A stretch of DNA of 64,000 nucleotides from contig CAMTYB010000002.1 in NCBI GenBank assembly GCA_947085855.1, positions 23,278-87,277 on the forward strand, written 5' to 3'. Positions 44,037 to 63,375 of the stretch are shown one piece after another (position 1 is the first letter of the stretch; every line of letters starts with the position of its first letter). This DNA is from an uncultured Candidatus Saccharibacteria bacterium (GTDB lineage: Bacteria > Patescibacteriota > Saccharimonadia > Saccharimonadales > 2-12-FULL-41-12). Both the position numbers and the translations under genes were made by a program. Under the pieces are notes generated by a model. It searched no databases, was not told the DNA's origin, and saw only the letters and a program-made list of their open reading frames with translations.

Positions 44037-44049
44037 AATGGAGGGTATT

Positions 44050-44490: not shown

Positions 44491-44519
44491 CTGACAAGAG
44501 AGGCAAAAAGTAGTAGAAT
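44491..44519 (+). promoter_or_regulatory. promoter candidate for the OLD/DUF2130 operon with an overlapping imperfect inverted repeat
   Basis: CTGACA (44491-44496), 17-nt spacer, TAGAAT (44514-44519). Imperfect IR GCCCCTCT / AGAGAGGC (44481-44488 / 44497-44504) brackets the -35. Confidence 0.4.
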
Positions 44520-44562
44520 AATAAGGAAATATATGGTTTAGGAATAAGAAGATTGAAGACGA

Positions 44563-47407: not shown

Positions 47408-47619
47408 TCCCGGAACAATTCCTTCATCTTTATTTTTAGTGCTTTGGCGATCTTCTCTACGTTCTTGACGGAAGGGTTGCGTACCCCTCTCTCAATACCA
47501 GATATATATGTACGATCTAATCCAGTCATAAAGCCTAGTTCTTCTTGGGATAATTCCGCAGCTAGTCGGTACTCACGTACTCTCTTACCAAGTTTCTGCT
47601 GAGTGCTTAAACGTGCCAT
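47404..47619 (-). CDS. XRE-family helix-turn-helix regulator
   Basis: LSQEELGFMTGLDRTYISGIERG HTH_3 pattern. Divergent from the tail-fibre-like cluster. Confidence 0.85.
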   Translation of the reverse strand: MARLSTQQKLGKRVREYRLAAELSQEELGFMTGLDRTYISGIERGVRNPSVKNVEKIAKALKIKMKELFRD

Positions 47620-47632
47620 ATACTCAATAGTG

Positions 47633-47644
47633 GCAACATGTTGC
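47633..47644. promoter_or_regulatory. 12-bp perfect palindrome GCAACATGTTGC just upstream of the second XRE gene (candidate operator)
   Basis: Read directly at 47633-47644, 14 nt from the XRE start codon at 47619. Confidence 0.35.
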
Positions 47645-47786
47645 TTATGAGACTACGGACTATAAGTCACAATCGAGCTTGATTTCTATCTGCTAGACTG
47701 CTATTAATTGTAATAATGCTTATGCAGCAATGAGGCGAACAAGTAAAAATATGAACACAACCACACAACACGACAAAGTACCTTAC

Positions 47787-47815
47787 TTGACAGGCGAAAC
47801 CAGTCTATGGATAAT
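47787..47815 (+). promoter_or_regulatory. sigma70-type promoter for the tail-fibre-like cluster
   Basis: TTGACA (47787-47792), 17-nt spacer, GATAAT (47810-47815). Confidence 0.5.
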
Positions 47816-47881
47816 CATAACTAGTATGAGGGACAAAATAAACAATACTATCTGCTCTAATTCCAGGGACACTATATAGCC

Positions 47882-48394
47882 ATGCCCAGTAGACTCCCAA
47901 CACCAGGAGGAGACCAAGGTTCTTGGGGAGACATCCTCAATGACTTTCTAGAACAAAGCCATGCTAGTGATGGCTCACTGAAAGACGGAGTAGTAACTAA
48001 TGCCAAAGTATCCGCTACTGCAGCCATAGCTAAGACTAAACTAGCCAGTGATGTCCAAACATCTCTGGACGCTGCAGACAATGCTATTCCTGCAAGTCAA
48101 AAAGGTGCGAGCGGTGGTGTAGCATCCCTCACCGGCACAACCCTAACCCCCGCACAAATACCTACCACAGTCGTTACTAAGTCAACCGATTCAAACGATA
48201 CTGGCAAAGCCATAGATGCTCATACTGGAGCCCCGCTTGTGGTGGTAAGTAAGAGCGATGGGCTAGGAGTCGTAGTGCACGGCGGCAACGCGAACACCGC
48301 GCGTCCCGCCGGCTACGCCGTCGTGCATTGGATTGGGTCGGTCGAGCCCATCAATGCCGTAGACGACGACCTTTGGGCAGATACGAGCGTCTGA
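47882..48394 (+). CDS. phage minor-tail/tail-fibre-like protein, compositionally chimeric
   Basis: The N-terminus LPTPGGDQGSWGDILNDFLEQSHASDGSLK resembles the N-terminal motif I associate with actinophage minor tail proteins. GC jumps inside the ORF near 48.25 kb without breaking the frame. Confidence 0.55.
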   Translation: MPSRLPTPGGDQGSWGDILNDFLEQSHASDGSLKDGVVTNAKVSATAAIAKTKLASDVQTSLDAADNAIPASQKGASGGVASLTGTTLTPAQIPTTVVTKSTDSNDTGKAIDAHTGAPLVVVSKSDGLGVVVHGGNANTARPAGYAVVHWIGSVEPINAVDDDLWADTSV

Positions 48395-49833
48395 TGACGA
48401 AGCTCCGCCGCAAAATGTCGGGGAACTTCGTGGGACGTGGTCCAAACGGCGAGCGAGTCCCACCCAAAACACCCGCGTATTCCACGTCGGCTGACATTCA
48501 GGTCGCCTCCATCTCCGAGTTGCTTGCGGCGGTAGCGGCGCTCGGTCCCAGCGGAGGCGGGTCGGTAATCGAGATCACCGCTAGCTCTCTGGCCGGTCAG
48601 ATCACGATTCCGAATAACTCCAACTCCGCGTCATGGACAGAGAACGTTCTGGTACGTCCACGGCTTGGTGAACGATGCAGCGTTGGGTTGCTCTCGAGCA
48701 GTTGCGCAAACGTCACCTTCGCTGGACTGGACTTCGAAAAGCAATACGCGCCTAGTACCGATCAGTGCCAGGCATACCTCAACAACACCGCCCACGGTTC
48801 TGGTTTCTGGCGATGTCGGAACCTTGATCCAATTCTCATCCAGTTCCGGGCACTCACCGATCCATGCTCGAATTGCTTCCTCTGCGAATGGGTCCAGCCG
48901 GATTGGCAGTTCTTCTACGTTCAGGACTTCTGCAACTTCGGCAGCCAAGGCCCCCTGTTCGACGGCTGCTACCTCGCCCCCATGGCCGTGACGCTGTATG
49001 ACGATGACTGGACGGTCGGCGCGACGACGTACGCCAATCCTGGTCGCCCGTTCGACTACCACAACGATGGAGCGGTCCAAGCGGGCACGTCCGTGACGCT
49101 CGGGATCTGCGACGGCGAGTACAGCTTCGGCCCGCCGAACCTGGCGCTCCTCATGTATCTCGACGACAGCCGGCATGACGCAGTGACCGCCACGGTCAGC
49201 GTCAACGGCACCGAGTGGGCTTCACTAACACTCGTCGGGCCGGACTACCGCCTTGCGCTCCGTCGGGGAGATATCGACCGCAGCTTCTCCGACGGCGATG
49301 TCGTAACGGCGACGTTCGACAAGGACGTAACCGGCGTCCACCTCGCGGCCGGTGTAGATATCACCGGCAACCCGAGCGCCGGCACGCCTGGCGTCCACGG
49401 GGACGTTTTCCAAGCGTACGCATCGGGAGAGTTCAGCCCTGGCGTACCGAGGATCGCCAAGGACTTCACATGGCGGGATTCTGTCATCGGCGCGACCACG
49501 TCGCTCAACTCGGCGTTCCAGTTCAACCCGACCTTGCAGGGCGAATTCGTCTGGGACAACTGCTTCATCGGCGCTACGGGCGGCAACAACGTTTGGGGCA
49601 ACATCGCGAATCCGGGCTACGACATCTGGCGCGAATACGTGCAGGGTTGTGACTGGCAAGGTCAGGCGAGTCTCACCGCTGACGGCTTGCTTAGTCTCTT
49701 TGCGAATAACACCTACAACGGCCTGAGTGGCACATACACCCCGGACGGCACGAATACCAACCGTGGTGCGGCCATGAAGACGCCGCCGCCTCCAAACCTC
49801 GCAGCCATCTGGCCGGAGTGTCCGCCGCTATGA
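48394..49833 (+). CDS. high-GC protein, possible right-handed beta-helix (depolymerase/tail-spike-like)
   Basis: ATG 48394 overlaps the upstream TGA (TGATG). The N-terminal SELLAAVAALGPSGGGSVIEITASSLAGQITIP pattern resembles beta-helix proteins. The functional call is weak. Confidence 0.5.
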   Translation: MTKLRRKMSGNFVGRGPNGERVPPKTPAYSTSADIQVASISELLAAVAALGPSGGGSVIEITASSLAGQITIPNNSNSASWTENVLVRPRLGERCSVGLLSSSCANVTFAGLDFEKQYAPSTDQCQAYLNNTAHGSGFWRCRNLDPILIQFRALTDPCSNCFLCEWVQPDWQFFYVQDFCNFGSQGPLFDGCYLAPMAVTLYDDDWTVGATTYANPGRPFDYHNDGAVQAGTSVTLGICDGEYSFGPPNLALLMYLDDSRHDAVTATVSVNGTEWASLTLVGPDYRLALRRGDIDRSFSDGDVVTATFDKDVTGVHLAAGVDITGNPSAGTPGVHGDVFQAYASGEFSPGVPRIAKDFTWRDSVIGATTSLNSAFQFNPTLQGEFVWDNCFIGATGGNNVWGNIANPGYDIWREYVQGCDWQGQASLTADGLLSLFANNTYNGLSGTYTPDGTNTNRGAAMKTPPPPNLAAIWPECPPL

Positions 49834-50828
49834 GCGCTCCAACGATCGTCTCCAAGGACGTCCACGGGTTCGGGGCGGACACCACCTCCCCCGGAATCAC
49901 CCTTCCAAGCTCGCCCGCGGTACTGCCGGGCGACATCATCATCTGCGCATGGCACGTCGCCGGACTTAACACGAGCACCGCCCCGGTCGTCCCTAGCGGC
50001 TTTACCGAACTGATCCGGAGCGGCAGCACCGTAGCTGCCATCACGGTGGCGGCAAAGATCGCATCGGGCGGCGAAGAGGGATCGACGTTCACTCCAGCGT
50101 CGGCGACCATCAGCCGAGCATGGACCACGTCGGTGTTCGTGGTCCGCGGCGGCCCGACTAACCTCGCACACCTGCTGGCGAACGGTAACAACGTGGCGGC
50201 GACGATCTCTCGTCCGGTCTTGACGGTTACTACTGCCACCGTCGACAACCTCGTGCTTGCCGGTGCTGCGGTCGAAGGTGGAGCCAACACCCTGACCGAC
50301 CCTGGTAGCCCATGGAGTCCAGATGACCAGGCCGCGAGCACCGGAAGCAGCGCTAGTTATGCGACCGCGATTCACGCAACAAAAGCCACCCCGGGGACGA
50401 CCGACGGGAGTTCGTGGACGGCAACCACTACCGGGAAGTGGGCTAGGTGGACAGTCGCAATCCCTCCCAATGTCAATCAACCCCCTGCGGTCGGCTCAAT
50501 CACGCCTGGCTACATCGTTGCCACGGTCGGAGAGGAGTACTCAGCAACGGCCACGGCAACAGACTCCGATGGCGCAATCGCTTCGTGGGCATGGCAACAG
50601 AACGCGACGGGCACCAACGTAACGGCTCCGGCGCTCAGCGGTGCAGACACAGCCACAGTGACCTTCACCCCAACGGAGTTGGGCGCCTTCACGCTTCAGG
50701 TAGTTGCCACAGACGATGACGGCTCGGATTCCGTCCCCGCGTACCTGCCCGTGATCGTGACCCACCAGCGCGACATCGCGCTGAAGGTGCGATCCGGGGG
50801 AACTTTTCAAAGTGTCGACCTGATTTGA
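49830..50828 (+). CDS. high-GC protein with C-terminal PKD/Ig-like domain (minor-tail-like)
   Basis: ATG 49830 overlaps the upstream TGA (ATGA). The C-terminal PPAVGSITPG...ATATDSDGAIASWAWQQ...TVTFTPTELGAFTLQVVATDDDGSDS resembles a PKD-type repeat. Confidence 0.55.
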   Translation: MSAPTIVSKDVHGFGADTTSPGITLPSSPAVLPGDIIICAWHVAGLNTSTAPVVPSGFTELIRSGSTVAAITVAAKIASGGEEGSTFTPASATISRAWTTSVFVVRGGPTNLAHLLANGNNVAATISRPVLTVTTATVDNLVLAGAAVEGGANTLTDPGSPWSPDDQAASTGSSASYATAIHATKATPGTTDGSSWTATTTGKWARWTVAIPPNVNQPPAVGSITPGYIVATVGEEYSATATATDSDGAIASWAWQQNATGTNVTAPALSGADTATVTFTPTELGAFTLQVVATDDDGSDSVPAYLPVIVTHQRDIALKVRSGGTFQSVDLI

Positions 50829-50895
50829 TCTCCACGCTTGGGGATTTGTGAGAGTCAGATAGCACCCTCGCCTAAATACACAGCCAACTATTTGC

Positions 50896-51660
50896 TTATC
50901 GAGTTGGTAGATATTTTGTATGGGGCACCGGCATCATAGGCCTGGTTCTTTTACCAATCGGTTCCAGTAATTCAATAGGTGAAACGCTACGAAGGTAGAG
51001 TGCAGTCACATCCAGTCTGGCATGACCAAGCTGTTGTTGGATGCGATATACATCAATACCTTCACGCCATAACTCAACCGCATGTTCGTGTCGGAAGCAA
51101 TGCGGATTAGCTCTTCTTCTCAACCCAGCTCGTTTGGCAGCACGCCTTAGTTGTCGCCGTATGTCAGACGCATGGACAGACCTTCCGGCTGTCGATCCCG
51201 TAAGGACACAAAACAATGCTCCATACGGCAGCTCCTTTCTTGCTATACGCCACTGCTCTAGCGCTTGCCATCCCCACTCGTCCATGGCAGATACGCGACG
51301 CTTATCTCCCTTTCCATGTCGCACCGTGATGGAAAAGTCATGACGGTTGAGATCACGCTCTTCAAGCGCCAGTGCCTCACTTATGCGTAGTCCCGAACGC
51401 CATAGTAGTGCAATCAGGGCTTGCAAGCGCAGTGCGCCTAGTTGCTGGTCAAGACGTGGCTTTGGGTAGTTAGGTGGCTCGCAGGCCTTTATTAGCTTAA
51501 AGATATCTTCTACTGCAATAGGGTCTGGTGGAAACTTCTTCCCCTTTGTCTTTGGCGATATGCCCTTACGAAAACCTGGCATGGTTGAGCTTGATCTTCG
51601 CCTGCCACGGATGTCTCGCACCTCAGTGATTGCGAGTGGTGATTGCTGTAGTGTAAACAT
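50896..51660 (-). CDS. tyrosine recombinase, catalytic-core-only (254 aa)
   Basis: RISEAL (Arg), HGKGDKRR (Lys), HCFRHEHA (His-x-x-Arg), LGHARLDVTALYL (His, Tyr nucleophile). No obvious N-terminal core-binding domain. Confidence 0.8.
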   Translation of the reverse strand: MFTLQQSPLAITEVRDIRGRRRSSSTMPGFRKGISPKTKGKKFPPDPIAVEDIFKLIKACEPPNYPKPRLDQQLGALRLQALIALLWRSGLRISEALALEERDLNRHDFSITVRHGKGDKRRVSAMDEWGWQALEQWRIARKELPYGALFCVLTGSTAGRSVHASDIRRQLRRAAKRAGLRRRANPHCFRHEHAVELWREGIDVYRIQQQLGHARLDVTALYLRSVSPIELLEPIGKRTRPMMPVPHTKYLPTR

Positions 51661-51908
51661 GATATGTACTCCTTCTTAGTAGTTAAGTTGCTACAGTTGA
51701 ACGAGGATAACATGTTTTGCCATATAGTTTGATAAAAAGCGAGGACATGTGGCTTGGCGTTGCACTTTTTGCGCTTGTTTTCATTAAATAATCATTAAAT
51801 TCCCGTGTGAATTTCGTCACATTGTGAAAGATTTTTCAAATTCATTGTAAGCGTTTTCAACACCTTAGCGGTGTTATTTTATTGTGCTTATCTTTATTAA
51901 AAAACTAT

Positions 51909-51923
51909 TTGCAAATATTGCAA
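51909..51923. promoter_or_regulatory. 15-bp perfect palindrome TTGCAAATATTGCAA upstream of the T4SS pilin gene (candidate operator)
   Basis: Read directly. Lies 39 nt before GTG 51962. Confidence 0.35.
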
Positions 51924-51961
51924 GCTGTGATAAATGTAGAGGCACAAAGGAGGATAACAAC

Positions 51962-52303
51962 GTGAGAAGTCAAAAACAGCTGCTATTTGTAGCACTATTC
52001 GCGGCAGTGGGGATGCCGTTGTTTGTGAGCGCCCCGGCACTAGCAGCCGGGGGAGATATCGGGCAAGTGGAGAACTTCATACGCTCGATCATAAAGGTCA
52101 TTGCAGGTTTAGCCGGTCTCATCGCGACCGGTTTTTTTGTGGTCGGAGGATTCACCTACATCACCAGCAGTGGCAACCCAGAGCAGTTGGATAAAGCAAA
52201 GCGGACGCTTACGTGGTCAGCCATAGGGCTTGCCATCGTGATTGCGGCCTTTGTGATCTCCAATATTGTGACGAGCTTGGCTACGTCTGCTTTTGGAGGC
52301 TAG
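51962..52303 (+). CDS. T4SS pilin, TrbC/VirB2-like
   Basis: GTG 51962 follows AGGAGG (51950-51955). Signal peptide ...PLFVSAPALA-AG, then two hydrophobic helices flanking YITSSGNPEQLDKAKR. Confidence 0.65.
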   Translation: MRSQKQLLFVALFAAVGMPLFVSAPALAAGGDIGQVENFIRSIIKVIAGLAGLIATGFFVVGGFTYITSSGNPEQLDKAKRTLTWSAIGLAIVIAAFVISNIVTSLATSAFGG

Positions 52304-52337
52304 ATGGATCTTTAAATAGTTAACGAGGAATGGTTGC

Positions 52338-53828
52338 ATGGATAGTGTACTTAACTTACCCCTAACACTCTTCGCCGATACATCAGGTGCTATTTCTGTC
52401 ATGCGTGATTGGGTGACACCAACCATTCGTACGTTTGCCGCACTTGGCTCGATAGTCTGCGTGTTCTTTGTAGTCAATTCCGGCTACTTGTACATGACGA
52501 GTAGCGGTAAGCCAGTGCAAATGGATCATGCCAAGAAAGTGCTTCGTAATGCACTACTAGGCTTAGTGATCGTCTTGAGCGCCTTGACGATCACTTCGAT
52601 TTTATCGAGTGCGTATGGGAATCCGACGGCAACCCAAGGGGCAACACTACCCAACTTGCAGGCTATTCCGCCGGATAACGTTGGTAATGGTCTGGTGGAC
52701 GTGCTCATCAAGGCGGTTACTGGTTTTCTCAATAACATCATTCAAGCAGTGGCCGCACCGTTTTTGGCAGCGCTCGAGTTCTTCACGAAAGCCACGCCAC
52801 TTATGGCCAGTAACCCGAGTGTGTTTAACCTGTGGCTGGCAATTGTCGGCATCTGCAATGTGCTGTTCGCTGTTATCTTAGCCCTCATCGGCCTGCACGT
52901 GATGAGTGCCGCATCTTTTGGCTTCGATGAGATTGAGTTTAAACACATGCTGCCACGCATTGGCCTGGTGTTTGTGCTCATGAACAGCTCAATCTTTCTG
53001 ATCGACGGCATCATTGAAATGTCCAACGTCCTGATTAATGCTGTCTCGCAAGTCAGTGGGGCCAGCTCCGTCTGGGCAACACTGACAGAAGTGGTGAAGA
53101 AAGCGGGCGGTCAAGGACTGGCGGCTCTGCTCGTTATGCTGGCGTTTCTCATCTTCACCGTTATTTTACTGGTCTACTACGTTGGTCGTCTGGTGACACT
53201 CTTTATTGGGGCGGTGATTTCACCGCTGATTGTGCTGCTATGGTTAGTCCCGGGTTTCCGGGACTTTTCTGAAACGGCGGCTAAAACATACTTGTCGACC
53301 ATCTTTGTACTGTTTGTACATGTGATCATCCTGATCCTGGCCTCGTCACTGTTTACCGGCATGGCTGTTGGCCAGGACGACGCACTTCCCGACACGCTCA
53401 TGAGTATGGTGGTGGGACTGGCTACTGTGCTAGCCCTGCTCAAAACTCAAGGCGTCATGATGCAATTTAGCTACGTCAGTATGGGAGCTCGTAATGCCCG
53501 CATGCTGGGTAGTCAGTTTGTAAACGGCGTCAGTTACATGACTGGTCACGGTAAGGCAGCGGCCAGTGCCGCTGCCGGTAAAGTACCGAGCCGCAGCAGT
53601 ATGAGCAGTAGCACTACGAAGTCGAGTTCTAGAAATTCAGGCACTGGTGGCTACAAGCAACCAAATACTGGCCACACACCAAAGACAGATAAAAACACAA
53701 TGCCATCCCCACGCGCCAAGACAGGTACTAGCTACGAAGCACCAAAGCTAGGCACCTCGCGCGATGAGGCAGTCGAAAGCATGAAGCAAAAGCAGTCTAC
53801 GAATAAGACAAAGGAGAATAAGTCATGA
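52338..53828 (+). CDS. pilin-like domain fused to a VirB6/TrbL-like polytopic membrane protein
   Basis: The N-terminal 100 aa align to the preceding pilin (FFVVNSGYLYMTSSGKPVQMDHAKK against FFVVGGFTYITSSGNPEQLDKAKR). At least 6 further TM helices and an S/T/K-rich tail follow. Confidence 0.6.
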   Translation: MDSVLNLPLTLFADTSGAISVMRDWVTPTIRTFAALGSIVCVFFVVNSGYLYMTSSGKPVQMDHAKKVLRNALLGLVIVLSALTITSILSSAYGNPTATQGATLPNLQAIPPDNVGNGLVDVLIKAVTGFLNNIIQAVAAPFLAALEFFTKATPLMASNPSVFNLWLAIVGICNVLFAVILALIGLHVMSAASFGFDEIEFKHMLPRIGLVFVLMNSSIFLIDGIIEMSNVLINAVSQVSGASSVWATLTEVVKKAGGQGLAALLVMLAFLIFTVILLVYYVGRLVTLFIGAVISPLIVLLWLVPGFRDFSETAAKTYLSTIFVLFVHVIILILASSLFTGMAVGQDDALPDTLMSMVVGLATVLALLKTQGVMMQFSYVSMGARNARMLGSQFVNGVSYMTGHGKAAASAAAGKVPSRSSMSSSTTKSSSRNSGTGGYKQPNTGHTPKTDKNTMPSPRAKTGTSYEAPKLGTSRDEAVESMKQKQSTNKTKENKS

Positions 53829-54346
53829 AGATAACTGTTGTACCAGCTCAGGTCACCACCGTCGAAGATAGGATTATGGGCAGTCTCGGCTTCTCGCAGA
53901 TGTTACTGCTCGTTTGCCCGGTGTTTATTTCAGCTCTATTGTTTGCAGGCTTGCCGCCGTTCATGGAGGGTGCCTGGTATAAGTACGTCCTCATTGGTGT
54001 ACTGACCGTCCTCTGCTGTATCTTGGCTATCCGTATTAAAGGCAAGATTGTGGCGCTGTGGTTAGTGACCATCCTGCGCTATAACCTACGACCAAAGTAC
54101 TATCTGTTCAACAAAAATACCGTATCCTACCGCGAAATGTATGCCCAGTCATCTGAAGCCGATGATAGAGCAAGTAATGAAAAGTCCGATGCACGTGAGC
54201 ATCACCATCTGCCAAAGCTGGCTCTTCCAGATAAAGCCCGGGTGCTGGCTGCTATTGAGAATCCTGCATCTAAGCTCAGATTTGAAACAACCAAGAAAGG
54301 AGGCATTCATGTTCGCCTTACAGAAATCGAAGAACAAAACATCTAG
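53825..54346 (+). CDS. PrgI/VirB3-like small T4SS membrane protein
   Basis: VPAQVTTVEDRIMGSLGFSQMLLL followed by two TM helices, as in PrgI-family proteins. ATGA overlap with the upstream gene. Confidence 0.5.
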   Translation: MKITVVPAQVTTVEDRIMGSLGFSQMLLLVCPVFISALLFAGLPPFMEGAWYKYVLIGVLTVLCCILAIRIKGKIVALWLVTILRYNLRPKYYLFNKNTVSYREMYAQSSEADDRASNEKSDAREHHHLPKLALPDKARVLAAIENPASKLRFETTKKGGIHVRLTEIEEQNI

Positions 54347-54935
54347 TCGTCAACAAGTCGCCATTAAGGGGGTGCGTGACGGTATTCTGATCCTGCCTGG
54401 CAACCAGTACCGGGCGGTACTGAAAGTCTCATCGCTCAACTTTGAACTCAAAAGCGAAGTTGAGCAGGACGCCATTATTGATACCTATGAGAGTTTTCTA
54501 AATTCCGTCGGTACCAGCCTGCAAGTCTTGATCCGTACTCGTGAAATAGATATGGATAAGTACCTAGAAGATTTAAATGAGCGGCTGCAGGATGAGCCTG
54601 AGGCAATCTATAGGTCGCAGCTAAAACACTACGACGAGTTTATCCGCTCACTCATTACGACTAACAAAATCTTGACGCGCCATTTTTACATCGTGATTCC
54701 ATATAGTGCCGGTGCAAAGGCTAACTTTGAGCTGGTGCAAGAGCAGCTCAACCTCAAAGTCGACATTGTCAGTAAAGGCATGACCAGACTCGGTATGCAC
54801 ACCACCCAACTAACCGATCTTGAACTATTCGATTTGTTCTATACGTTCTACAGTCCGGCTCAAGCGAAACTGCAACCACTCAGTAGTCGCATGATGCTTG
54901 CTATTAACAGTGCGCTTGTAGAAAGGAGTGTGTAA
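54309..54935 (+). CDS. VirB4/TrsE N-terminal domain as a separate ORF
   Basis: ATG 54309 follows AAGGAGG (54296-54302). IKGVRDGILILPGNQYRAVLKVSSLNFELKSEVEQDAIIDTYESFLNSV is the typical VirB4 N-terminal region. The stop overlaps the next ATG (TAATG). Confidence 0.6.
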   Translation: MFALQKSKNKTSSRQQVAIKGVRDGILILPGNQYRAVLKVSSLNFELKSEVEQDAIIDTYESFLNSVGTSLQVLIRTREIDMDKYLEDLNERLQDEPEAIYRSQLKHYDEFIRSLITTNKILTRHFYIVIPYSAGAKANFELVQEQLNLKVDIVSKGMTRLGMHTTQLTDLELFDLFYTFYSPAQAKLQPLSSRMMLAINSALVERSV

Positions 54936-56668
54936 TGGATAAGTTGTTGTCCCCACTCAAGAAACGGAGCGAAGCGCGGGAAGAAAAGCGCCGCGAATTA
55001 TCGATTACCTTTGGTGAGCAAGATGCGCTTGATGTGCTGAGCTATTCAGGACTCGAAGAAAACATAGATTACCTGATGATCGACGGGGTTTACATCCGTA
55101 CACTGTATATTTCTGGCTATCCTTTTGTGGCAAGCTCTGGTTGGATGGATAGCTTGATTAACTTTAATCACGACACCGACATTAGTTACCACCTTCATGA
55201 GGTAAACGCATTATCGGCACTACCGAAACTGCACCGTAAGATTACGGAGCTTGAGAGCACTAAGCGTGCCATGATGCGCGCCGGTAAAATTGTTGGCAGC
55301 GAGATAACCGACCCGCTCGAGTCGGCCATTGAGCTCAGAGACAAGATCCAGCGTGGTCAGGAAAAACTGTTTCAGATGAGTATCTATGTTTGCGTGCGAG
55401 CAGATAGCTTGGAGGAGCTGAACAAGATAACCAAGTTACTGGAAGCGACCATGTCAGCTCGTTTGTTTTACTCCAAAGTTGCCCGCTATGAACAACTCGA
55501 AGCCTTGCAGTCTATCTTACCTAGGGGTGAAGACCAGCTGCACCAGAAGCGCAACTTAGATAGCAGTTCTGCCGCTTTGACATTCCCATTCATGTCATCC
55601 GAACTCGTCCAGGAATCGGGCATTTTGTATGGCGTCAACAAATCAAATAACAGCCTAGTCATCTTAGATCGCTTTAGCCTGCACAACGCGAACTCGATTG
55701 TGTTTGCGCAGAGTGGCAGTGGTAAGAGCTACACCACCAAAGTTGAGATACTCCGTCAGCTTATGCAAGGCACTAAGGTTATTGTGATTGACCCTGAGCG
55801 GGAGTATAAGCGCCTGACAGAATCAGTCGGTGGTACGTATATAAAACTCAGTGCCAAGAGTAAAGAAAAGGTGAATCCTTTTGACCTTGCTACAACCTTC
55901 CACAATATTAGTGATCTTTCTGAGCACGCCCAAGACTTAACTGAAGTCATTAGCCTGATGGCCGAAGGGCTATCTGGCCGCGAAAAAGCCGCCGTCGACA
56001 AGGCAATCTTACGAGTTTACAAAAAAGCCAAAGGTACGCAGCCTCTGCTCGAAGATTTCTATGCTGAATTACAAACCTTAGGCCAGCTCAAACTGTGCGA
56101 ACGACTGGAGAAGTATATATCTGGGTCGCTAGCAGATGTCTTTAATGCCCAAACCAACATCAAACTAGATAACCGCCTAGTAATCTTTGACATTAAAGAT
56201 TTACCGGAAAGCTTGCGGCAAATCATGATGCTGATAATCTCCAACTTCGTCCAAAACCAAGTCAAAGCAAGACCAGAAAAGCGGCTCCTCATCATAGACG
56301 AAGGCTGGATGTTACTTGAGCACGAACAATCGGCTCGGTTTGTGTCCGGCCTGGTGCGCCGCGCTCGTAAGTACTACTTAGGTGTATCGATCATCTCCCA
56401 GCAAGCAAACGACTTCTTAAGATCTGACTACGGCCGCGCTATCGCCAGTCAATCTGCCCTCCGAATCCTGATGCGCCAAGATACCACCACTATTAAAAAT
56501 GTGGTCAGTGAGTTTAACTTGAGTGAATACGAACAAAGTTATCTGCTGACCTGTGAGCGAGGTGACGCCTTGATTATTGCTGATCAGCATCACGTGGCCG
56601 TCAAGGTTGTTGCCAGCGATAAAGAACACCCCCTCATTACCACCAACCCTGCGGAGCTGTACTCGTGA
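54935..56668 (+). CDS. virB4: VirB4-like T4SS ATPase (ATPase domain)
   Basis: Walker A VFAQSGSGKSYTTK and Walker B RLLIIDEGW. 577 aa. Confidence 0.85.
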   Translation: MDKLLSPLKKRSEAREEKRRELSITFGEQDALDVLSYSGLEENIDYLMIDGVYIRTLYISGYPFVASSGWMDSLINFNHDTDISYHLHEVNALSALPKLHRKITELESTKRAMMRAGKIVGSEITDPLESAIELRDKIQRGQEKLFQMSIYVCVRADSLEELNKITKLLEATMSARLFYSKVARYEQLEALQSILPRGEDQLHQKRNLDSSSAALTFPFMSSELVQESGILYGVNKSNNSLVILDRFSLHNANSIVFAQSGSGKSYTTKVEILRQLMQGTKVIVIDPEREYKRLTESVGGTYIKLSAKSKEKVNPFDLATTFHNISDLSEHAQDLTEVISLMAEGLSGREKAAVDKAILRVYKKAKGTQPLLEDFYAELQTLGQLKLCERLEKYISGSLADVFNAQTNIKLDNRLVIFDIKDLPESLRQIMMLIISNFVQNQVKARPEKRLLIIDEGWMLLEHEQSARFVSGLVRRARKYYLGVSIISQQANDFLRSDYGRAIASQSALRILMRQDTTTIKNVVSEFNLSEYEQSYLLTCERGDALIIADQHHVAVKVVASDKEHPLITTNPAELYS

Positions 56669-57210
56669 ACGCTGGCCTGTTTGCTATTGGTTTGCTGACG
56701 GGCGGTAATACGAAGAAACAGATTGGCCTAGTACTCGCTACAATGGCGATCATTCTATCGCTGCCGTTCATGGCAGTGACGGCAATGGGGTCAAGTGTGC
56801 TCACGTTTCTCTCGAGCGTTCCGAACGCTGAAGCGGCTGAGCTGCAAGGCTTTTACATGGGTGGGCCAGTGCCTGGTGACACCTACGAATGGGGCAACTG
56901 TACCTACTGGTCGTTTGCCCAGCGACTGTGGGCAAATAACCCCATCCCGACTACCTGGGGCAATGCGAACACCTGGGACGATTATGCTAAACGAGATGGC
57001 TATGAGGTGAATAACACTCCTTTACCTGGAGCAGTCTTCCAGACAGACAGTGGCTATTGGGGGCATGTGGCGTTCGTCACCAAGGTTGAGCCAAACGGCA
57101 GTTGGACGATATCCGAGATGAACGTGAAGGGACTAAATATTGTCTCGACCCGCACCTTTCCCAAAGATGCCGCAATCTTTTACAGCTTTATCCATAACAA
57201 GGTGCGCTAG
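56665..57210 (+). CDS. CHAP-domain peptidoglycan hydrolase (VirB1 functional analogue)
   Basis: N-terminal TM/signal, then GNCTYWSFAQRL (Cys) and GHVAFVTKV (His). Confidence 0.8.
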   Translation: MNAGLFAIGLLTGGNTKKQIGLVLATMAIILSLPFMAVTAMGSSVLTFLSSVPNAEAAELQGFYMGGPVPGDTYEWGNCTYWSFAQRLWANNPIPTTWGNANTWDDYAKRDGYEVNNTPLPGAVFQTDSGYWGHVAFVTKVEPNGSWTISEMNVKGLNIVSTRTFPKDAAIFYSFIHNKVR

Positions 57211-59811
57211 ATGGAGGCCTTGCAGCTGATAAAACCATATATCATTACCGCTCTGTGGGTTGTGTTCGGTTTGCTGATCATTTACTGCCTTTTGGTACTT
57301 GTTCGAACAATCCTCAACCTACGAGCACTGCTGAGTCGCCATATGGCGTGGCTGGAAATTACCCCGCCAGCGAGTATTAACAAAACACCAGCTGCAACCG
57401 AGCAATTATTTTCCGTGCTGCATGGTCTGCGCGTGACTAGGCGGCTCAAAGACAAAATACTGAACCGTGAACCGGTCATGAGTTTTGAGATCGTTTCCAC
57501 TAAGCAGCATGGTATTCGCTATCTCGTGCAGGTCGAAAAGCAGCACGCCCAGGCCGTCCACAAAATGATCGTGGCCTACATTCCTGATGCCAAAGTAAAA
57601 CAAGTGAAGCATGAAACGGCCTCAGTACCTGTAGTTATTGAGTTCAAGCAAGCTGGCCACTTCGTACTGCCCCTGACCTTGACCTCTGCCGTTGAAGAGC
57701 ATGACCCACTGTCCTATGTCACGAGCGCAATGGCGAACTTGAGAGAAAACGAGCAACTTACCTTACAGCTGGTTGCTAAGCCCATTAAACTGCGTGAAGC
57801 TGAGAGGTTGTCGCATCGCATCTTAGGTAACGAGAATATTTTGCAGCAAGTTGGCGGCCAAGGGCTATCGAAATTCAGCAGAGGAACCAGTATTGCCCAG
57901 CGCGGCGTACAAGGTATTGCTGATCTGACCAGTGAAATCTATGTCGGCACCACCTATGGACATAAAAACTATTACGATTCAAAACAAAAACAACTACATC
58001 AGCAAACAGCTATTCGCCGCGATGACCGACCAGCCCGGACACTCAGTGTATTTGAACTAGAGCTAATGGACACCATGCACAAGAAAGTCAGCAAGCCACT
58101 GTTTCAAGTGAGCCTACGACTGCTTATTAACAGCGATACACCAAAAGAGCACTTGAGCGCACTGCGCTCGTCACTAGATGGCTTTAGCGTGCCACAGTAT
58201 CAAAGCTTACGTAAGAAGCCACAGCTGCCACCAGTGCAAACAACACGCGTAGCTTTAGCTCGCCGGAGATTACCGACATTGTTTCAGCGAAATGCACTCA
58301 TATTATCTTCTTCTGAGCTGGCCAGCCTGTACCACTTCCCAGCAAGTGACATTAGTAAGACCGATAATCTTATTACATCGCTCAGCCGCACTCTACCGGC
58401 ACCGGTTTCACTCAAACAAGGCACTACGCTTGATGTGGCTTTTGGCATGAATCGCCACAACGGAGTTGAAACGCTAATTGGATTAACCGGTGCTGAGCGC
58501 CAGCGCCACATCTACATCATCGGTGGTACGGGCAATGGTAAAACCACGATGCTTCTCTATGGTATTGTCCAGGATATGCAGGCGGGTAAAGGTATCGCAG
58601 TGCTTGATCCGCATGGCGATCTCGCTGAAACAATTCTGCGTCATGTGCCAGAAGATCGCATTCAGGATGTTATCTATATGAACCCGGATGACCTCATGCA
58701 TCCCGTCGGCATCAACTTGCTAGAACTTGACGCTAGTCTTACTGGCGACGACTTACTGCGCGAGAAAGATCTGATCACTGAATCAACCATCTCGGTCTTA
58801 CGTAAAATATTCTCCGAGGATGATTCAGGCGGACACCGTATTGAATACGTACTACGTAATACCATTCAAACTGCTCTGACAGTAGAAGGCGCAACGCTCT
58901 TTACGATCTTTCGCCTCTTGAATGACCAAAAGTATCGTCGTTCAGTCACTAAAGCACTCGAAGACCAAGACCTCAAGAACTTCTGGGATAACGAGCTGGG
59001 TAAGGCTGGTGAGTTCCAGCGAGTTAAGATGGCCGCTGGTATCACTGCTAAGATCGGGCGTTTTCTGTTCTCAGCCAGTGCGAAACGAATCCTAGAACAA
59101 GAAAAGTCTAGTGTTGATTTCTACGATGTCATTAACTCTGGCAAGATACTAATCTGTAACTTCTCCAAAGGTTTGCTGGGAGAGGATACATCAACGCTGT
59201 TTGGTACAACCGTGCTCGCAAAACTTCAAGTGGCATCACTGAAACGGGCACGACTGCAACAAACTGATCGTCGCCCCTTCTATCTCTATGTCGATGAGTT
59301 CCAGAACTTTGCGACTATGAGCTTTGTCCAGATGCTCAGTGAAGCACGGAAGTACAAACTATTCCTGACAATGGCTGAACAGTCTACCTCGCAGCAAGAT
59401 GAACAAAGGTTGGTGGATATAATCCTCGCCAACGTCGGGACGGTGATCTGCTTCCGCTCAGGCAGTCCTTCCGATGAGCGCCTTATGTTACCACTATTCA
59501 GCCCATACATTGAGCAGGGCGAAATAGCTAATCTGCCAGCTTATACTTTCTATTGCCGGATTGCTGCCTTGCAGGCACAGGAGCCGATGTCAGGACAGAC
59601 AATGCTGCTTGAACAAGAAGATGACCATAAGATAGCCGAACGTGCGATTGCATACTCACGAAAGGCATATGGAACGAAGCAGAAACCTGAAGTAGCCCAA
59701 ATAAGAAAGTCTGCACCCAAGAAAGCTGCGCCGTCAAAGAAGCAGAAAACTCAGGTGAAAAATGCTGCGCCAGCAGCAGATAACGCAAGTCAGGATACGC
59801 CAACAAATTAA
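57211..59811 (+). CDS. virD4: VirD4/TraG-like type IV coupling protein
   Basis: N-terminal TM, Walker A IIGGTGNGKTTML, Walker B FYLYVDEFQNF. 866 aa. Confidence 0.8.
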   Translation: MEALQLIKPYIITALWVVFGLLIIYCLLVLVRTILNLRALLSRHMAWLEITPPASINKTPAATEQLFSVLHGLRVTRRLKDKILNREPVMSFEIVSTKQHGIRYLVQVEKQHAQAVHKMIVAYIPDAKVKQVKHETASVPVVIEFKQAGHFVLPLTLTSAVEEHDPLSYVTSAMANLRENEQLTLQLVAKPIKLREAERLSHRILGNENILQQVGGQGLSKFSRGTSIAQRGVQGIADLTSEIYVGTTYGHKNYYDSKQKQLHQQTAIRRDDRPARTLSVFELELMDTMHKKVSKPLFQVSLRLLINSDTPKEHLSALRSSLDGFSVPQYQSLRKKPQLPPVQTTRVALARRRLPTLFQRNALILSSSELASLYHFPASDISKTDNLITSLSRTLPAPVSLKQGTTLDVAFGMNRHNGVETLIGLTGAERQRHIYIIGGTGNGKTTMLLYGIVQDMQAGKGIAVLDPHGDLAETILRHVPEDRIQDVIYMNPDDLMHPVGINLLELDASLTGDDLLREKDLITESTISVLRKIFSEDDSGGHRIEYVLRNTIQTALTVEGATLFTIFRLLNDQKYRRSVTKALEDQDLKNFWDNELGKAGEFQRVKMAAGITAKIGRFLFSASAKRILEQEKSSVDFYDVINSGKILICNFSKGLLGEDTSTLFGTTVLAKLQVASLKRARLQQTDRRPFYLYVDEFQNFATMSFVQMLSEARKYKLFLTMAEQSTSQQDEQRLVDIILANVGTVICFRSGSPSDERLMLPLFSPYIEQGEIANLPAYTFYCRIAALQAQEPMSGQTMLLEQEDDHKIAERAIAYSRKAYGTKQKPEVAQIRKSAPKKAAPSKKQKTQVKNAAPAADNASQDTPTN

Positions 59812-59818
59812 ATAAAAA

Positions 59819-59855
59819 GAAGGCTTCTGTTTCCTCGCAAGGAGCACAAGCCTTC
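59819..59855 (-). terminator. hairpin between convergent virD4-like and Replic_Relax-like genes (terminator candidate)
   Basis: GAAGGCTT (59819-59826) pairs with AAGCCTTC (59848-59855). On the minus strand it is followed by TTTTTATT (59811-59818). Confidence 0.45.
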
Positions 59856-59911
59856 CTGGGTTTGATTATAGCTGCATTGCGTCCACAACGAAATCGTTAT
59901 GGAAGCCCTAA

Positions 59912-60727
59912 TTAAAGCGCAGTAAGCTTTCCAGGCTCATAGACACTGCTCCACACTGCCGCAGTTGCATCTGAGACCTTCAGAGCCTTCATGGTCGTCA
60001 AATAAATCTGCAAGTCGTCTATACCAGCGTTGTCGAGAGTCTTATAAATATGATGTTGTAGTTTCTTTTCCATGCTGGAATCTGCACAGACGAGCAAGAT
60101 GGTTGGGTAGTCAGTTTTTGAGCTTGCTTCCCAGTCACCTGAATCAAAGTGTTCAAGAAGTGCTGCAAACTCCTTCTTTATGATGAAAAGTGCCTTATCA
60201 GTATAGATATGAAGGATGTACTCATTCGTAGTGGCAGAGGGCTTGATTCTATTTAGGTAGAGGTCTGGTCGGGGCTCGGGCATGTAGCTGTACTTAGTAA
60301 GCTCGGTCTTGGTGAAGATATGAAAGGTTTCTGCATAGCTTGCTCGTAAGGCAAGGTAGACTTTGAAGGTGTTTGTATATTGGTCTATATAGCTTTCAGA
60401 CACTGACTTATTGTTATACATAATATGCAGCGCCTTTTCATTGACGCCTTCACTGCGCAATAGCTTCACCGATTCAGTCGTGAGATAGTAGCGAGCGCCT
60501 TTGTTCTGAAATAATTCATTGCCTGTTACTCGTTTGTCCAAGTATCCATTTTCTACCAAACGTTCTAATGCATTAAACATAGATTGTCTGCTTTTCAGGT
60601 TCTTGTACTGAGCTAGTAATGGTGCTGTTATGAATCTAAATTTATAAGCTAGTTTCAGTATGTGTAGTTGTTTTTTAGTTACTTGAGGTTTAGCAGTAGG
60701 GTCTGGCCTGGCTATAGTCTTTCGCAT
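59912..60727 (-). CDS. Replication-relaxation (Replic_Relax)-like protein
   Basis: The N-terminal winged-helix pattern VTKKQLHILKLAYKFRFITAPLLAQY...ALERLVENGYLDKRV resembles the family. Not verified by search. Confidence 0.45.
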   Translation of the reverse strand: MRKTIARPDPTAKPQVTKKQLHILKLAYKFRFITAPLLAQYKNLKSRQSMFNALERLVENGYLDKRVTGNELFQNKGARYYLTTESVKLLRSEGVNEKALHIMYNNKSVSESYIDQYTNTFKVYLALRASYAETFHIFTKTELTKYSYMPEPRPDLYLNRIKPSATTNEYILHIYTDKALFIIKKEFAALLEHFDSGDWEASSKTDYPTILLVCADSSMEKKLQHHIYKTLDNAGIDDLQIYLTTMKALKVSDATAAVWSSVYEPGKLTAL

Positions 60728-60893
60728 CTAGTATGGTTGCTGCCTCTCTCCACCGTTCTGTTATTTCTCCCTATATAGTACATATAAAAGAGGAAGAATA
60801 ATAGGGTTAATTTATATCTGTTAAAACGTGTAAATTATAAATACATCGGGGTATTCATTATTTGTGGAAAACTTTATCATAAAAAGTACTTGC

Positions 60894-60937
60894 AACTATC
60901 TCTATCAAGATAGTATACTATATCTATAGAGATAGTT
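60894..60937. promoter_or_regulatory. 12-bp perfect inverted repeat with nested GATAG/CTATC palindromic spacer (candidate oriT or operator)
   Basis: AACTATCTCTAT (60894-60905) and ATAGAGATAGTT (60926-60937) flank a 20-nt spacer CAAGATAGTATACTATATCT. Confidence 0.45.
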
Positions 60938-60962
60938 AATCTCTGAAGCGAGGGTATAAAAA

Positions 60963-61157
60963 ATGGCAAGAACCAAGGGCGCTAAAAACAAGAACACCGA
61001 CACTTTACCTCATTATGTGAAGCTTCCGACAGAGGCTAAAGTACAGTTCCTTGCGGCACTTATCGTTGACTGTATCCAGGCCGACCAAACACAGGGCGGT
61101 AAGTTACTGAAACAAGTGAGGGTCAAAGATCGTGGAAGACCAACGCTACTTACCTAA
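60963..61157 (+). CDS. small basic protein upstream of and overlapping the serine recombinase gene
   Basis: 64 aa. ATG follows GAGGG (60951-60955). Function unknown. Confidence 0.45.
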   Translation: MARTKGAKNKNTDTLPHYVKLPTEAKVQFLAALIVDCIQADQTQGGKLLKQVRVKDRGRPTLLT

Positions 61158-62806
61158 AAACGCTGTCGCTGCGATTCGGGTGTCTTCAGTAAAGCAAGGC
61201 ACTCAGGGCGATTCGCCTGATGCTCAGAAAGAGCAAATTGAACGCTATGCCGAAAGCCATAACCTTGTTATTAAAAAGATCTTCGTATTTCTAGAGTCTG
61301 CTAGTAAAGAACAGCAGCCCATGCAGGAAGCCATCGATTACTGCAAGAATCCTAAGAATGGTGTACAGCTCTTTATCATTAAGTCTATCGATCGTTTTAC
61401 GCGAGGCGGCTCTTATTCATATGACCATCTCAAGCTACAACTAGAAAAGTATGATGTGCAGCTGGTGGATATATACGGCGTTATTAGCTCGCAAAAAGTA
61501 AATACACTCGATCACTTAGGCGTTGAATACAAATGGAGCGTCTACTCCCCGACGCAGAAGGCGGAGATATTAGAGGCCGAACGAGCCAAGGATGAAATGC
61601 GCGACATTATGAGCCGTATGATTGGTGCTCAAATACGCTATGCCCGTATGGGCTACTGGGTCAGAAAACCACCCTTTGGCTTTGACAATAAGAAGGTTGA
61701 GACAGCTAATGGTAAGCGCTGTATTCTTGTGCCGCATCCCACAGAAGCCGAGTTCATAATCAAGATGTTTGAGTTGAGGGCTAAAGGCACACTTAACGAT
61801 GAACAGATTGTCGATAAGATAAATCAAATGGGCTATGTGTCCAGAACAGACCTATTGCGAGATAAGAGTGACCGTTCAAGGGTTATTGCTAAGAGAGGTG
61901 GGCAGGAACTGATCCTCAAGACATTCTGGAGGATGATTCAAAATCCGGTGTATGCTGGCGTCAATCCTGAGAAATGGACACAGGGTAAGCCTGTGAAGTG
62001 TCATTTTGACGGACTGGTATCAATAGAACTCTTTAATAAGGCTAACCGCGGTAAGATTACTATCACCGAGAATAATGGTGAGGTTGAGATATATCGGCGT
62101 AAACCACCAGAGCATTTAGTGAAAAAAGGCGTCCGTAACCCTGACTTCCCATACAAGCGTGAGGTTATGTGCCCAGAATGCGAGAAACCACTCTACGGTA
62201 GTGCGTCGCGTGGCAGGCTTGGCAAGTATTACCCTGCTTACCATTGTAATAAACGTGGACACTATTTCAGAGTGCCTAAGGCTGATTTTGAAAAGACCAT
62301 TGAGAACTTCGTGAAGAGCATTCGCATAGCACCAGAGCGGATCAGCGAGCTAGAGGAAGCGGTCATCGCTGAGTGGAACAAGCGACAAGCAGAGGTTCAA
62401 AAAGATGAACTGAGCATAGATGTACGTATTACTGAACAGAAGACATCTGCTGCTATGGCAATGGATAAGATTAAATACTTAAACTCAGAGACAGCAATTA
62501 AATATATGGAGGATGAACTTATGAAAACAGAGGATCAGATCGCGTCGTTAATGGCACAAAAGGAGAAACTAAAACAGGCAGAAACCACTCAAATCAGTAC
62601 CGTTATGGACTATATACGATATTTTCTGGAACACCTTGAGTATCTACTACTCCAACAGATGAATCCAGTCGCAAAAGCGGGTTATTTTGGCTTAATTTTC
62701 GACAAAGCACCCACATACCGGGAAATAATTTCTGGAACCGAAGATATTACGAAAATTTCAGGAGTGAATGAGCTATTCTTAGCCCTGAATGATGATTCAG
62801 GACACA
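61132..62806 (+). CDS. large serine recombinase (3' end undefined: no in-frame stop before 63375)
   Basis: AVAAIRVSSVKQGTQGDSPDAQ (catalytic Ser), recombinase domain, Zn-ribbon CPECEKPLYG...YHCNKRGH, coiled-coil insert. Recombinase-like sequence ends at about aa 558, where the ORF runs antisense into tRNA-Gln. Confidence 0.8.
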
Positions 62807-62814
62807 TGGCTGGG
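62807..62814. repeat. right copy of 8-bp direct repeat TGGCTGGG (putative attR core, equal to the tRNA-Gln 3' end)
   Basis: The complement is CCCAGCCA, the last 8 nt of the tRNA including the CCA. Confidence 0.5.
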
Positions 62815-62880
62815 GATGAGGGATTCGAACCCCCGATCTCGGGACCAGAACCCGGTGCCTTACCACTTGGCCAATCCCCA
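62807..62880 (-). tRNA. tRNA-Gln (anticodon CUG), CCA encoded
   Basis: Hand-folded. Acceptor UGGGGAU/AUCCCCA with U1-A72 and discriminator G, as in E. coli tRNA-Gln. D arm GCCAAGUGGUAAGGC, anticodon arm CCGGG-UUCUGGU-CCCGA, T arm GGGGG-UUCGAAU-CCCUC. Hidden inside track ORF 61132..63375 (translated as GDEGFEPPISGPEPGALPLGQSP). Confidence 0.85.
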
Positions 62881-63003
62881 TTACTGGTATGTACAGGGGC
62901 AAATTGTAGCAGATTATATATAAATTATCCAGACGTTCTTATTGAATGTCGGGGTGTTTCATGGTATAAAATATTCAATAACATGGTGTCGCAAGGAGAG
63001 AAT

Positions 63004-63375
63004 ATGGCTGACGATAAGCAACCGAGTCCACAAGAACAATTTGAACAGAATTTTACTGCTGCAATGCAAGCGATTGAAGCGGCTGGCGCCCAAGATCCGT
63101 ATAAGGGCGATGAGCTGCGGGCTGCCAAAGTCGGTGCCTATTCTGTACTACAGGCTGGTGAAATGGCTCATACTGAACGTCTACAGCGCCAAATTAATGT
63201 AGCTAGCCGAGTTGGCGAATTGGCTGCTAGAAATGGTGATAGTTTATTGAGTGAAGAAATGGTGCAAGTAGTCGAGCTGGATCGTCCAATTTTGGACGCA
63301 TTGTTGGCTGGCGAGTCTGATAATCCTGAGAAAGCGCCAACCGATAAAGCCAAAACAGGTGGTGGCAAAGCCTAG
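63004..63375 (+). CDS. hypothetical protein
   Basis: ATG 63004 follows AAGGAG (62993-62998). 123 aa. By chance in frame with the recombinase ORF. Confidence 0.55.
   Translation: MADDKQPSPQEQFEQNFTAAMQAIEAAGAQDPYKGDELRAAKVGAYSVLQAGEMAHTERLQRQINVASRVGELAARNGDSLLSEEMVQVVELDRPILDALLAGESDNPEKAPTDKAKTGGGKA

Follow-up and report, generated by a model that had tools for sequence, protein, structure and literature searches.

Attachment (att) sites that lie inside the gene of their own integrase are documented in tyrosine integrases. In myxophage Mx8, attP reportedly lies within the gene of the integrase IntP, and integration is said to swap the 3' end of that gene, giving a prophage protein with a different C-terminus. 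The SSV1-type archaeal integrases, which are also tyrosine recombinases, are likewise said to carry the att site in the integrase gene and to target tRNA genes, with the integrase gene being split in two. Among large serine recombinases (LSRs), TnpX of Tn4451 and Tn4453 is reportedly expressed from a promoter formed at the circular joint, at the 5' end of its gene. In mycobacteriophage BPs and its relatives, attP lies in the 3' end of the repressor gene, the viral and prophage repressors differ in their C-termini, and a degradation tag is lost (PMC4557955). Here we describe a 64,000-nt stretch of DNA from an uncultured Candidatus Saccharibacteria bacterium (contig CAMTYB010000002.1, positions 23,278 to 87,277), hereafter referred to as the window, in which an LSR gene at the right end of an integrative element runs into a tRNA gene without reaching a stop codon. 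The resulting 747-aa open reading frame (ORF) is probably the integrated-state (attR) version of an LSR gene that has its attachment site in its own 3' end, a reading that would extend the own-gene att site from tyrosine integrases to a serine recombinase family.

The locus differs from each of these systems. For Mx8, the enzyme (IntP) is a tyrosine integrase and only one phage system is concerned, whereas the arrangement described here occurs in the serine family across a superphylum and involves an antisense-tRNA end. Integration splits the SSV1-type gene, whereas only the last codons would be lost here, and the joint that makes a 5' promoter for TnpX would here complete the 3' coding end. 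The preliminary description of this DNA had cited Mx8 intP/attP as an established precedent; this holds as an analogy but not as a statement about family, since the Mx8 enzyme is a tyrosine integrase. The predicted crossover lies within the coding sequence, as in the Mx8-type systems, and tyrosine chemistry is absent, so the likeness is functional and does not imply family membership. In the case of BPs, the gene is a repressor, the integrase is of the tyrosine type and the effect of the swap has been demonstrated, whereas here the effect is hypothesised (PMC4557955).

Characterised LSRs (Listeria A118/LI, phiC31, Bxb1, TP901-1 and SPbeta) share the domain order and fold of the recombinase described here, and their att sites are likewise short, asymmetric and built around a central 2 bp. 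They differ from it in three respects: the target here is the 3' end of tRNA genes instead of protein-coding genes, attP is contained in its entirety within the 3' coding end of the recombinase gene, and the sequence is remote, with a PDB profile match confined to the catalytic domain. Phage R4 was considered as an LSR precedent and rejected, as the core of its attP is located outside the gene, 27 nt before sre begins. In full-text literature searches, we found no description of an own-gene att site for a serine recombinase, of serine recombinases dedicated to the 3' ends of tRNA genes, or of these Patescibacteria recombinases.

The recombinase reading frame and its family

The recombinase ORF (61132..63375, plus strand) begins with GTG, and its element-encoded part comprises codons 1-561 (61132..62814, plus strand), with no stop before the element ends. 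The sole tRNA gene detected by ARAGORN in the window, tRNA-Gln(CTG), occupies 62807..62880 on the minus strand. The Rfam tRNA model RF00005 spans 62810..62880 (58.5 bits), and because this match starts at 62810, positions 62807-62809 represent an encoded CCA. Codon 559 of the ORF (ATG, 62806-62808) straddles the 3' end of the tRNA, the next 24 codons read the tRNA in antisense as the peptide GDEGFEPPISGPEPGALPLGQSP, and the frame then continues through 41 stop-free intergenic codons (62881..63003, plus strand). At 63004 it meets an in-frame ATG preceded by AAGGAG, a Shine-Dalgarno (SD) sequence, which opens a 123-aa ORF (63004..63375, plus strand); the in-frame fusion with this ORF yields the full 747 aa. 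The preliminary description had claimed that the recombinase has no stop of its own and reads open through the tRNA antisense into an SD-preceded gene, and both parts of this claim were borne out. The downstream ORF has no Pfam match and only one weak match among 1.8 billion representatives, and can be regarded as an orphan.

A sequencing error hiding a stop had been named as a condition that would undo these claims. The 747-aa ORF and the junction are identical in two independent Logan assemblies (L001 and L002), that is, in three assemblies including the window, and identical sequence in independent assemblies excludes such an error. Several of the numbers at the locus itself are weak. In shuffled sequences, 41 open intergenic codons occurred with P=0.023 and 42 open codons of the circular form with P=0.053, the 8-bp repeat at the element ends was by itself at chance level (232 8-mer matches with a 120-nt probe), and no repeat of 12 nt or longer was found with the same probe. 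Because the repeat and the open frames carry little weight alone, the case rests on comparative evidence.

A homologue search at E<=1e-10 returned 1,643 protein clusters. Among the best 120 of these, 103 proteins end in an antisense T-arm peptide (G-F/L-E-P...), which follows a conserved ...LNE-F segment; the shortest of these 120 homologues has 547 aa and the longest 747, and the median is 573. Relatives were present in 342 loci of GTDB species representatives of Patescibacteria, including Saccharibacteria, Microgenomates, WWE3, Levy-, Shapiro- and Roizmanbacteria. We fetched 80 of these loci, and in 62 of them the recombinase ORF overlaps the 3' end of a minus-strand tRNA gene (Gln, Glu, Lys, Arg, Ser, Asn, Asp or Trp), giving 55 distinct junctions; in most of the remaining fetched loci, the contig breaks off at the junction or shortly beyond it. 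In none of the 62 tRNA-junction loci does the recombinase frame stop before the tRNA, and its first stop codon is reached 8-566 nt beyond the 3' end of the tRNA.

The same loci show that the frame is kept open as far as the junction. Of the 55 distinct junctions, 0 have an in-frame stop within the 33 nt that precede the tRNA, compared to 26/55 and 45/55 with stops in the two alternative frames (Fisher p=2e-18), even though these nucleotides code for poorly conserved, disordered residues. The phase relative to CCA is not fixed: among the 48 CCA-encoding cases, 37 are in frame 1, 10 in frame 2 and one in frame 0, and 37 of the 48 read xTG-Gxx. Beyond codon 561, the integrated-form tails vary from a few to 186 residues and show no pattern. 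Judging from these comparisons, a gene that lacks its own stop is characteristic of this family of Patescibacteria recombinases, whose targets are the 3' ends of many tRNA genes. This would account for the odd, variable GFEP-containing C-termini of hundreds of annotated Patescibacteria recombinases, as well as for assembly breaks at these loci.

We also examined the protein itself. Pfam identified PF00239 Resolvase (E=4e-9) and PF07508 Recombinase, the latter at 21.1 bits, which equals its cutoff. A single-sequence search of the PDB with the recombinase returned nothing, and a 34-sequence family profile matched only the catalytic domain of TP901-1 (E=0.007), with the RVS serine (S18) aligned. 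Across the 34 sequences, R16, S18, Q22, D87, R88 and R91 are invariant in the catalytic domain, and C347, C350, H371, C372 and H377 in the zinc-ribbon region. An AlphaFold2 model (pLDDT 75) contains a catalytic N-terminal domain, helix alphaE, a recombinase domain, a zinc-ribbon region, a coiled coil and extra C-terminal helices up to residue ~533, with strands at 309-382 and long helices and the coiled coil at 401-482. With Foldseek, the model is matched best in the PDB by serine integrase-DNA complexes of full length (~575 aligned columns, E=5e-16 to 1e-13). The protein thus combines a resolvase-type catalytic domain with a recombinase domain followed by a zinc ribbon with an inserted coiled coil, as LSRs do, and by its modelled fold and site geometry the product of 61132..62814 is a large serine recombinase that is remote in sequence from the characterised ones. 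By analogy with other LSRs, the enzyme would be expected to catalyze unidirectional attP x attB recombination, and excision together with a directionality factor.

One alternative is that the recombinase and the downstream 123-aa protein form a genuine, functional fusion product of 747 aa. The frame is indeed open and in phase, and the ORF is identical in all three assemblies. The fusion was nevertheless observed in this lineage only; the median homologue has 573 aa, the ends of the homologues are unrelated, and the downstream ORF is an orphan with an SD and ATG of its own. The fused stretch also spans the tRNA gene and its promoter (TGGATA/TACAAT, 62931..62903, minus strand; conserved with the related locus L085), which are transcribed convergently, and in a family of more than 1,600 members a coincidence with a probability of about 0.02 x 1/3 is expected to occur somewhere. 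We therefore find a functional fusion highly improbable. We regard the fusion to the ORF at 63004 as most likely a chance event in a single lineage, because the ORF is an orphan with its own SD, the convergent tRNA gene and promoter lie within the fused stretch, and relatives stop at arbitrary points.

Equally hard to credit is an account in which the element is moved by a tyrosine recombinase or in which a sequencing error hides the stop. The 3' ends of tRNA genes are classic targets of tyrosine integrases, and the element does encode an Xer-like tyrosine recombinase (50896..51660). Against this, the geometry of serine recombinase and tRNA gene recurs in 62 of 62 loci across Patescibacteria classes, and the long direct repeat of the tRNA 3' part that a tyrosine integrase would be expected to leave is absent; against the hidden stop stands the identity of the three assemblies.

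Element boundaries and attachment sites

The element, which carries a type IV secretion system (T4SS) according to Pfam scans, extends over 19,376 bp (43439..62814, plus strand), with the LSR gene at its right end, and is inserted at the CCA/acceptor end of tRNA-Gln(CUG). The last 8 bp of this tRNA gene consist of CCA, the discriminator and four acceptor nucleotides. The attR copy of the 8-bp core, TGGCTGGG (62807..62814), is the antisense of the tRNA's CCCAGCCA, and the attL copy lies at 43431..43438. The core corresponds to codons 559-561 of the recombinase, so that the earlier proposal of an att core inside the 3' end of the gene fits the window and, by the same rule, 62 of the 62 tRNA-junction loci. 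The host tRNA gene (62807..62880, minus strand) remains intact with its CCA encoded, and supplies the B' arm of attB, including TCGAAC at 62825-62830.

The best comparison for an unoccupied site is L085, the closest relative found for the flanking guanylate kinase gene gmk (88% identical). In the window, gmk lies at 42692..43279 on the minus strand (PF00625), in synteny with L085, where the element is absent. In L085, tRNA-Gln is directly followed by a terminator hairpin (-18.1 kcal/mol, z=-4.9) and then by gmk. The distance from the tRNA end to the gmk start is 152 nt in L085 versus 159 nt in the window after removal of 43439..62814, and the element-deleted window is colinear with L085 in the order tRNA promoter TGCTACAAT, tRNA, terminator, gmk promoter and gmk. 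The L085 tRNA is the UUG isoacceptor, and the two loci are therefore orthologous by position but not identical; an exact-protein look-up of gmk returned the occupied site only. The native terminator of tRNA-Gln is retained at the far end of the element (43385..43430, minus strand; a 15-bp stem with a U-run, -21.6 kcal/mol, z=-5.5), now 19.4 kb from its tRNA. Two further contigs, L005 and L006, with recombinases 84% and 73% identical to that of the window, end exactly at ...TTGGCTGGG, right after the 8-mer TGGCTGGG, which matches the behaviour of an assembly graph where reads diverge at that base. These sequence comparisons support an element end at the 8-bp core.

The arm of the element adjoining the tRNA (the P arm) was considered as a surrogate tRNA terminator. 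In the window it forms a hairpin with a 9-bp stem (62782..62803, minus strand; -12.1 kcal/mol, z=-3.3) that starts 3 nt after CCA. Across the family, terminator-like trailers in the P arm occurred in 8/56 cases versus 14% of control windows, with a mean minimum free energy of -6.5 versus -5.6, and the surrogate role was rejected family-wide as such trailers are no commoner than in controls. In some subgroups (L039, L041, L056, L058, L059 and L066), the tRNA strand of the final 25-40 nt of the recombinase gene specifies a strong hairpin and a U-run; these hairpins lie directly after the tRNA, reach -27 kcal/mol and look like replacement terminators, a feature that is not general in the family.

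Joining the two element ends reconstructs an attP, ...caGGACACaTGGCTGGGCTAGTGTCCcg..., in which GGACAC (62800-62805) and GTGTCC (43442-43447) are symmetric about the TG of TGGC-TG-GG. The predicted attP contains GATTCAGGACACATGGCTGGGCTAGTGTCCCGTAGGTGGAACC and the predicted attB contains GACTCGCCTTTTCGTGGCTGGGGATGAGGGATTCGAACC. The central TG (62811-62812) lies within the 8 bp common to attP and attB and is probably the crossover dinucleotide. Measured from this centre, the T-arm motif TCGAAC lies at 14-19 in the tRNA arm, and the similar TGGAAC lies at 19-24 in the P' arm. In LI, the zinc-ribbon motif lies at 16-24 in attP and at 11-19 in attB, a shift of 5 bp (Rutherford et al., PMC3783163). 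Here, too, the T-arm-like motif of attP is displaced outward by 5 bp relative to attB, in agreement with the published rule (PMC3783163). In silico, the sites thus agree with what is expected of LSR att sites, which span ~40-60 bp and combine a shared central dinucleotide with a 5-bp outward shift of the zinc-ribbon domain motif in attP. The predicted attP/attB pairs would be of engineering value for a phylum-scale group that is hard to manipulate genetically.

Junctions of the P-O-P' type, at which a related recombinase gene runs into element-type DNA and not into a tRNA gene, repeat this pattern. T(C/G)GAAC lies 24-29 nt from TGG in the P' arm of the window and in the P-O-P' junctions of L003 and L011, and T(C/G)GAA(C/T) lies at 23-28 in L055 and at 25-30 in L092, compared to 19-24 for T(C/G)GAAC in the tRNAs and 19-25 in tRNA-integrated sisters; the 5-bp offset is repeated in L003, L011 and L092. 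In L050, TGGAAC lies at 20-25, 4 nt nearer to TGG than in the other junctions. Up to a 7-bp core, L050 and L092 have the same P arms as their tRNA-integrated sisters (L059 and L015/L018, respectively), and they diverge thereafter. A second recombinase lies downstream in L092 and L003, with the two recombinases 5 kb apart in L092, and the P-O-P'-type junctions of these two loci are best read as apparent tandem arrays.

Tandem or composite recombinase arrays, with P-O-P'-type junctions located within chromosomes, were observed in L092, L003, L051 and L091, which points to accretion by recombination with attR or secondary sites. L051 and L091 were not accepted as simple junctions, as they have composite or pseudo-site arrangements instead; the L091 junction resembles a non-tRNA pseudo-attB, with TTGAAACC at attB spacing.

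The predicted circular form and its recombinase tail

In the explanation that we propose, a 19.4-kb element would have inserted into the last 8 bp of tRNA-Gln, with the crossover at the central TG. The recombinase frame would cross the P arm and the core without a stop, so that the C-terminus would be set by whatever DNA is joined there. In the integrated state, the end would be supplied by the antisense tRNA, 41 intergenic codons that happen to be open, and the in-frame orphan ORF, giving 747 aa; in the excised circle, it would be supplied by 42 codons of the left end and a TAG over the ATG of the next gene, giving 603 aa. The zinc-ribbon domain would read TCGAAC (14-19) in attB and its look-alike TGGAAC (19-24) in attP. 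The analysis shows the boundaries, the family-wide missing stop, the LSR fold and the site geometry; excision, translation of the tail and any difference in activity between the two forms are inferred.

The left end of the element (43439..43567, plus strand) contains the P' arm, with GTGTCC at 43442-43447 and TGGAAC at 43454-43459. When 62814 is joined to 43439, the frame continues through precisely those 42 codons that the preliminary description had translated by hand and ends at TAG 43565-43567, which overlaps the ATG of the PLD-like gene at 43560. The further suggestion made there, that the integrated and excised forms would encode different C-termini, holds for the predicted products of 747 and 603 aa. 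A second copy of the P' 19-mer GTGTCCCGTAGGTGGAACC precedes a PLD homologue in L091, where the same overlap of stop and PLD ATG is found, and the 19-mer is also present in the groundwater contigs L094 and L096, where it is preceded by an AT-rich flank and TGGCTGGC and resembles an attL.

The description had also suggested looking for the 42-aa tail in homologous elements. In three related left ends, the frame that continues the recombinase is open for 42, 30 and 50 codons. Over the first 21 codons after the core, the ratio of nonsynonymous to synonymous differences (pN/pS) is 0.43, 0.35 and 0.11 in this frame only; the other five frames have stops or ratios of about 1 or more, except for the antisense frame linked to it in phase, in which stops occur. 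Between the window and L091 there is an indel of 36 nt that preserves the frame, and in both the tail ends at a common stop that overlaps the PLD ATG. These comparisons, which cover a region that partly overlaps the PLD ribosome-binding site, are suggestive of translation of the tail.

A different account of the left end is that its open frame is a separate 45-aa micro-gene (43430..43567) with an NTG start at the core. In the integrated state it does form a GTG-start ORF, and the start codon is ATG in L091 and TTG in L094. It has no Shine-Dalgarno sequence, however, its start base comes from the variable host flank, and it was never called among 5.8 billion predicted proteins. A micro-gene would also leave unexplained why recombinases throughout the family lack a stop, and we consider it improbable.

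More weight must be given to the possibility that the arrangement is real but that swapping the C-terminus has no functional consequence and is only a by-product. In that case the enzyme would be complete by about residue 549, any tail would be tolerated, be it antisense tRNA, left end or host ORF, and the gene would abut the site for the sake of tight linkage. Residues 550-561, the last 12 before the element end, are disordered in the AlphaFold2 model, the integrated tails are patternless, the tails of distant P-O-P' junctions are unrelated and as short as 9-10 aa, and the phase relative to CCA is not constant. On the other hand, neutrality does not readily account for the complete lack of in-frame stops in the last 33 nt, for the low pN/pS values and the in-frame indel in the three left ends, or for the position of the stop, which lies beyond the P' motif in all P-O-P' junctions seen. 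A neutral swap is a serious contender that nonetheless falls somewhat short of probable.

Several observations weigh against an own-gene attachment site with a functional tail swap. The disorder of residues 550-561 means that the swap may be functionally neutral. The test for selection on the tail covers 21 codons in three sequences, and the tail is conserved only in these three close relatives; in distant P-O-P'-type junctions the stop follows 9-149 codons after the core, and the sequences are unrelated beyond the DNA motif. A profile of the three tails found no candidates among 5.8 billion predicted proteins. The P and B arms lack a T-arm-like motif, and the site model is therefore drawn from the right-hand arms only. 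Finally, the circular junction that the preliminary description had proposed to look for was sought as the exact attP sequence in viral and metagenome contigs and was not found. The family is absent from IMG/VR, none of the fetched whole contigs is circular, and no left end (core repeat plus motif) was found within 10 kb upstream of 59 related recombinases, whose elements must therefore be larger than this flank.

In structural terms, the location of the att core in the final recombinase codons and the different ends encoded by the two forms are well supported. The tail swap might act as a regulatory switch, by analogy with integration-dependent immunity (PMC4557955). A more elaborate and rather doubtful conjecture is that the gene acts as a state sensor. 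Only the excised circle would encode the complete enzyme, with a selected tail supplied by the element and a proper stop coupled to the following gene, whereas the integrated copy would be tRNA-antisense-tailed and its transcript would collide with tRNA transcription, keeping excision low. The zinc ribbon would read the universal T-arm and could thereby be retargeted among tRNA genes, and the recombinase would mobilise bona fide conjugative elements carrying the 'orphan' T4SS of Patescibacteria.

A 22-nt P'-arm sequence, AGTGTCCCGTAGGTGGAACCA, was also observed in three GC-rich metagenome contigs (L093, L095 and L097), in which the TGG core is missing and a TAA in the same frame lies immediately before it.

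Cargo of the element and neighbouring features

In the left part of the element, Pfam scans identified genes for a PLD-like protein, an OLD-family nuclease and a DUF2130 protein. The PLD-like gene (43560..44036, plus strand; PF13091, E=3e-13) is the one whose ATG overlaps the predicted circular-form recombinase stop. Further to the right, a complete T4SS cluster (51884-59811) encodes a VirB2-type pilin, VirB6-like and PrgI-like proteins, VirB4, a CHAP hydrolase and a coupling protein (T4CP). The cluster lies inside a discrete insertion, and the syntenic L085 locus has no insertion. A discrete insertion with its own integrase and a T4SS that includes VirB4, a coupling protein and a pilin corresponds to what is expected of an integrative and conjugative element.

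A previous survey concluded that relaxases are missing from most T4SS of Patescibacteria and that these systems are possibly not conjugative (PMC12102498). In the element, a 271-aa protein (59912..60727, minus strand) has no direct Pfam match but is, over its full length, 25-26% identical to proteins of L091 and L092 that match PF13814 Replic_Relax, and it is a candidate relaxase on the basis of this similarity. At least some Patescibacteria T4SS clusters therefore appear to reside on discrete integrative elements with a candidate relaxase, a result that bears on the view that they are non-conjugative (PMC12102498).

Immediately upstream of the recombinase, a 64-aa ORF (60963..61157, plus strand) overlaps the recombinase start by 26 nt and has no family match. 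A small ORF of 57-68 aa is kept at this position in L003, L091 and L092, and the 64-aa ORF, the only candidate for a directionality factor (RDF), may be such a factor or a regulator. A palindrome of 22+22 nt (60894..60937) lies upstream of this ORF and could be an operator or oriT.

Two further features were observed. At the left junction, the ORFs 43273-43452 (plus strand) and 43344-43475 (minus strand) cross the element boundary, and one of them has been called as a 43-aa gene in a public assembly; both are probably annotation artefacts made by the insertion. Within the element, the segment 48000-51700 has a GC content of 57-64% versus a background of ~45%, encodes a PKD-domain protein and ORFs without family matches, and adjoins the Xer-like tyrosine recombinase gene (50896-51660). 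This high-GC segment may be a nested foreign insertion.

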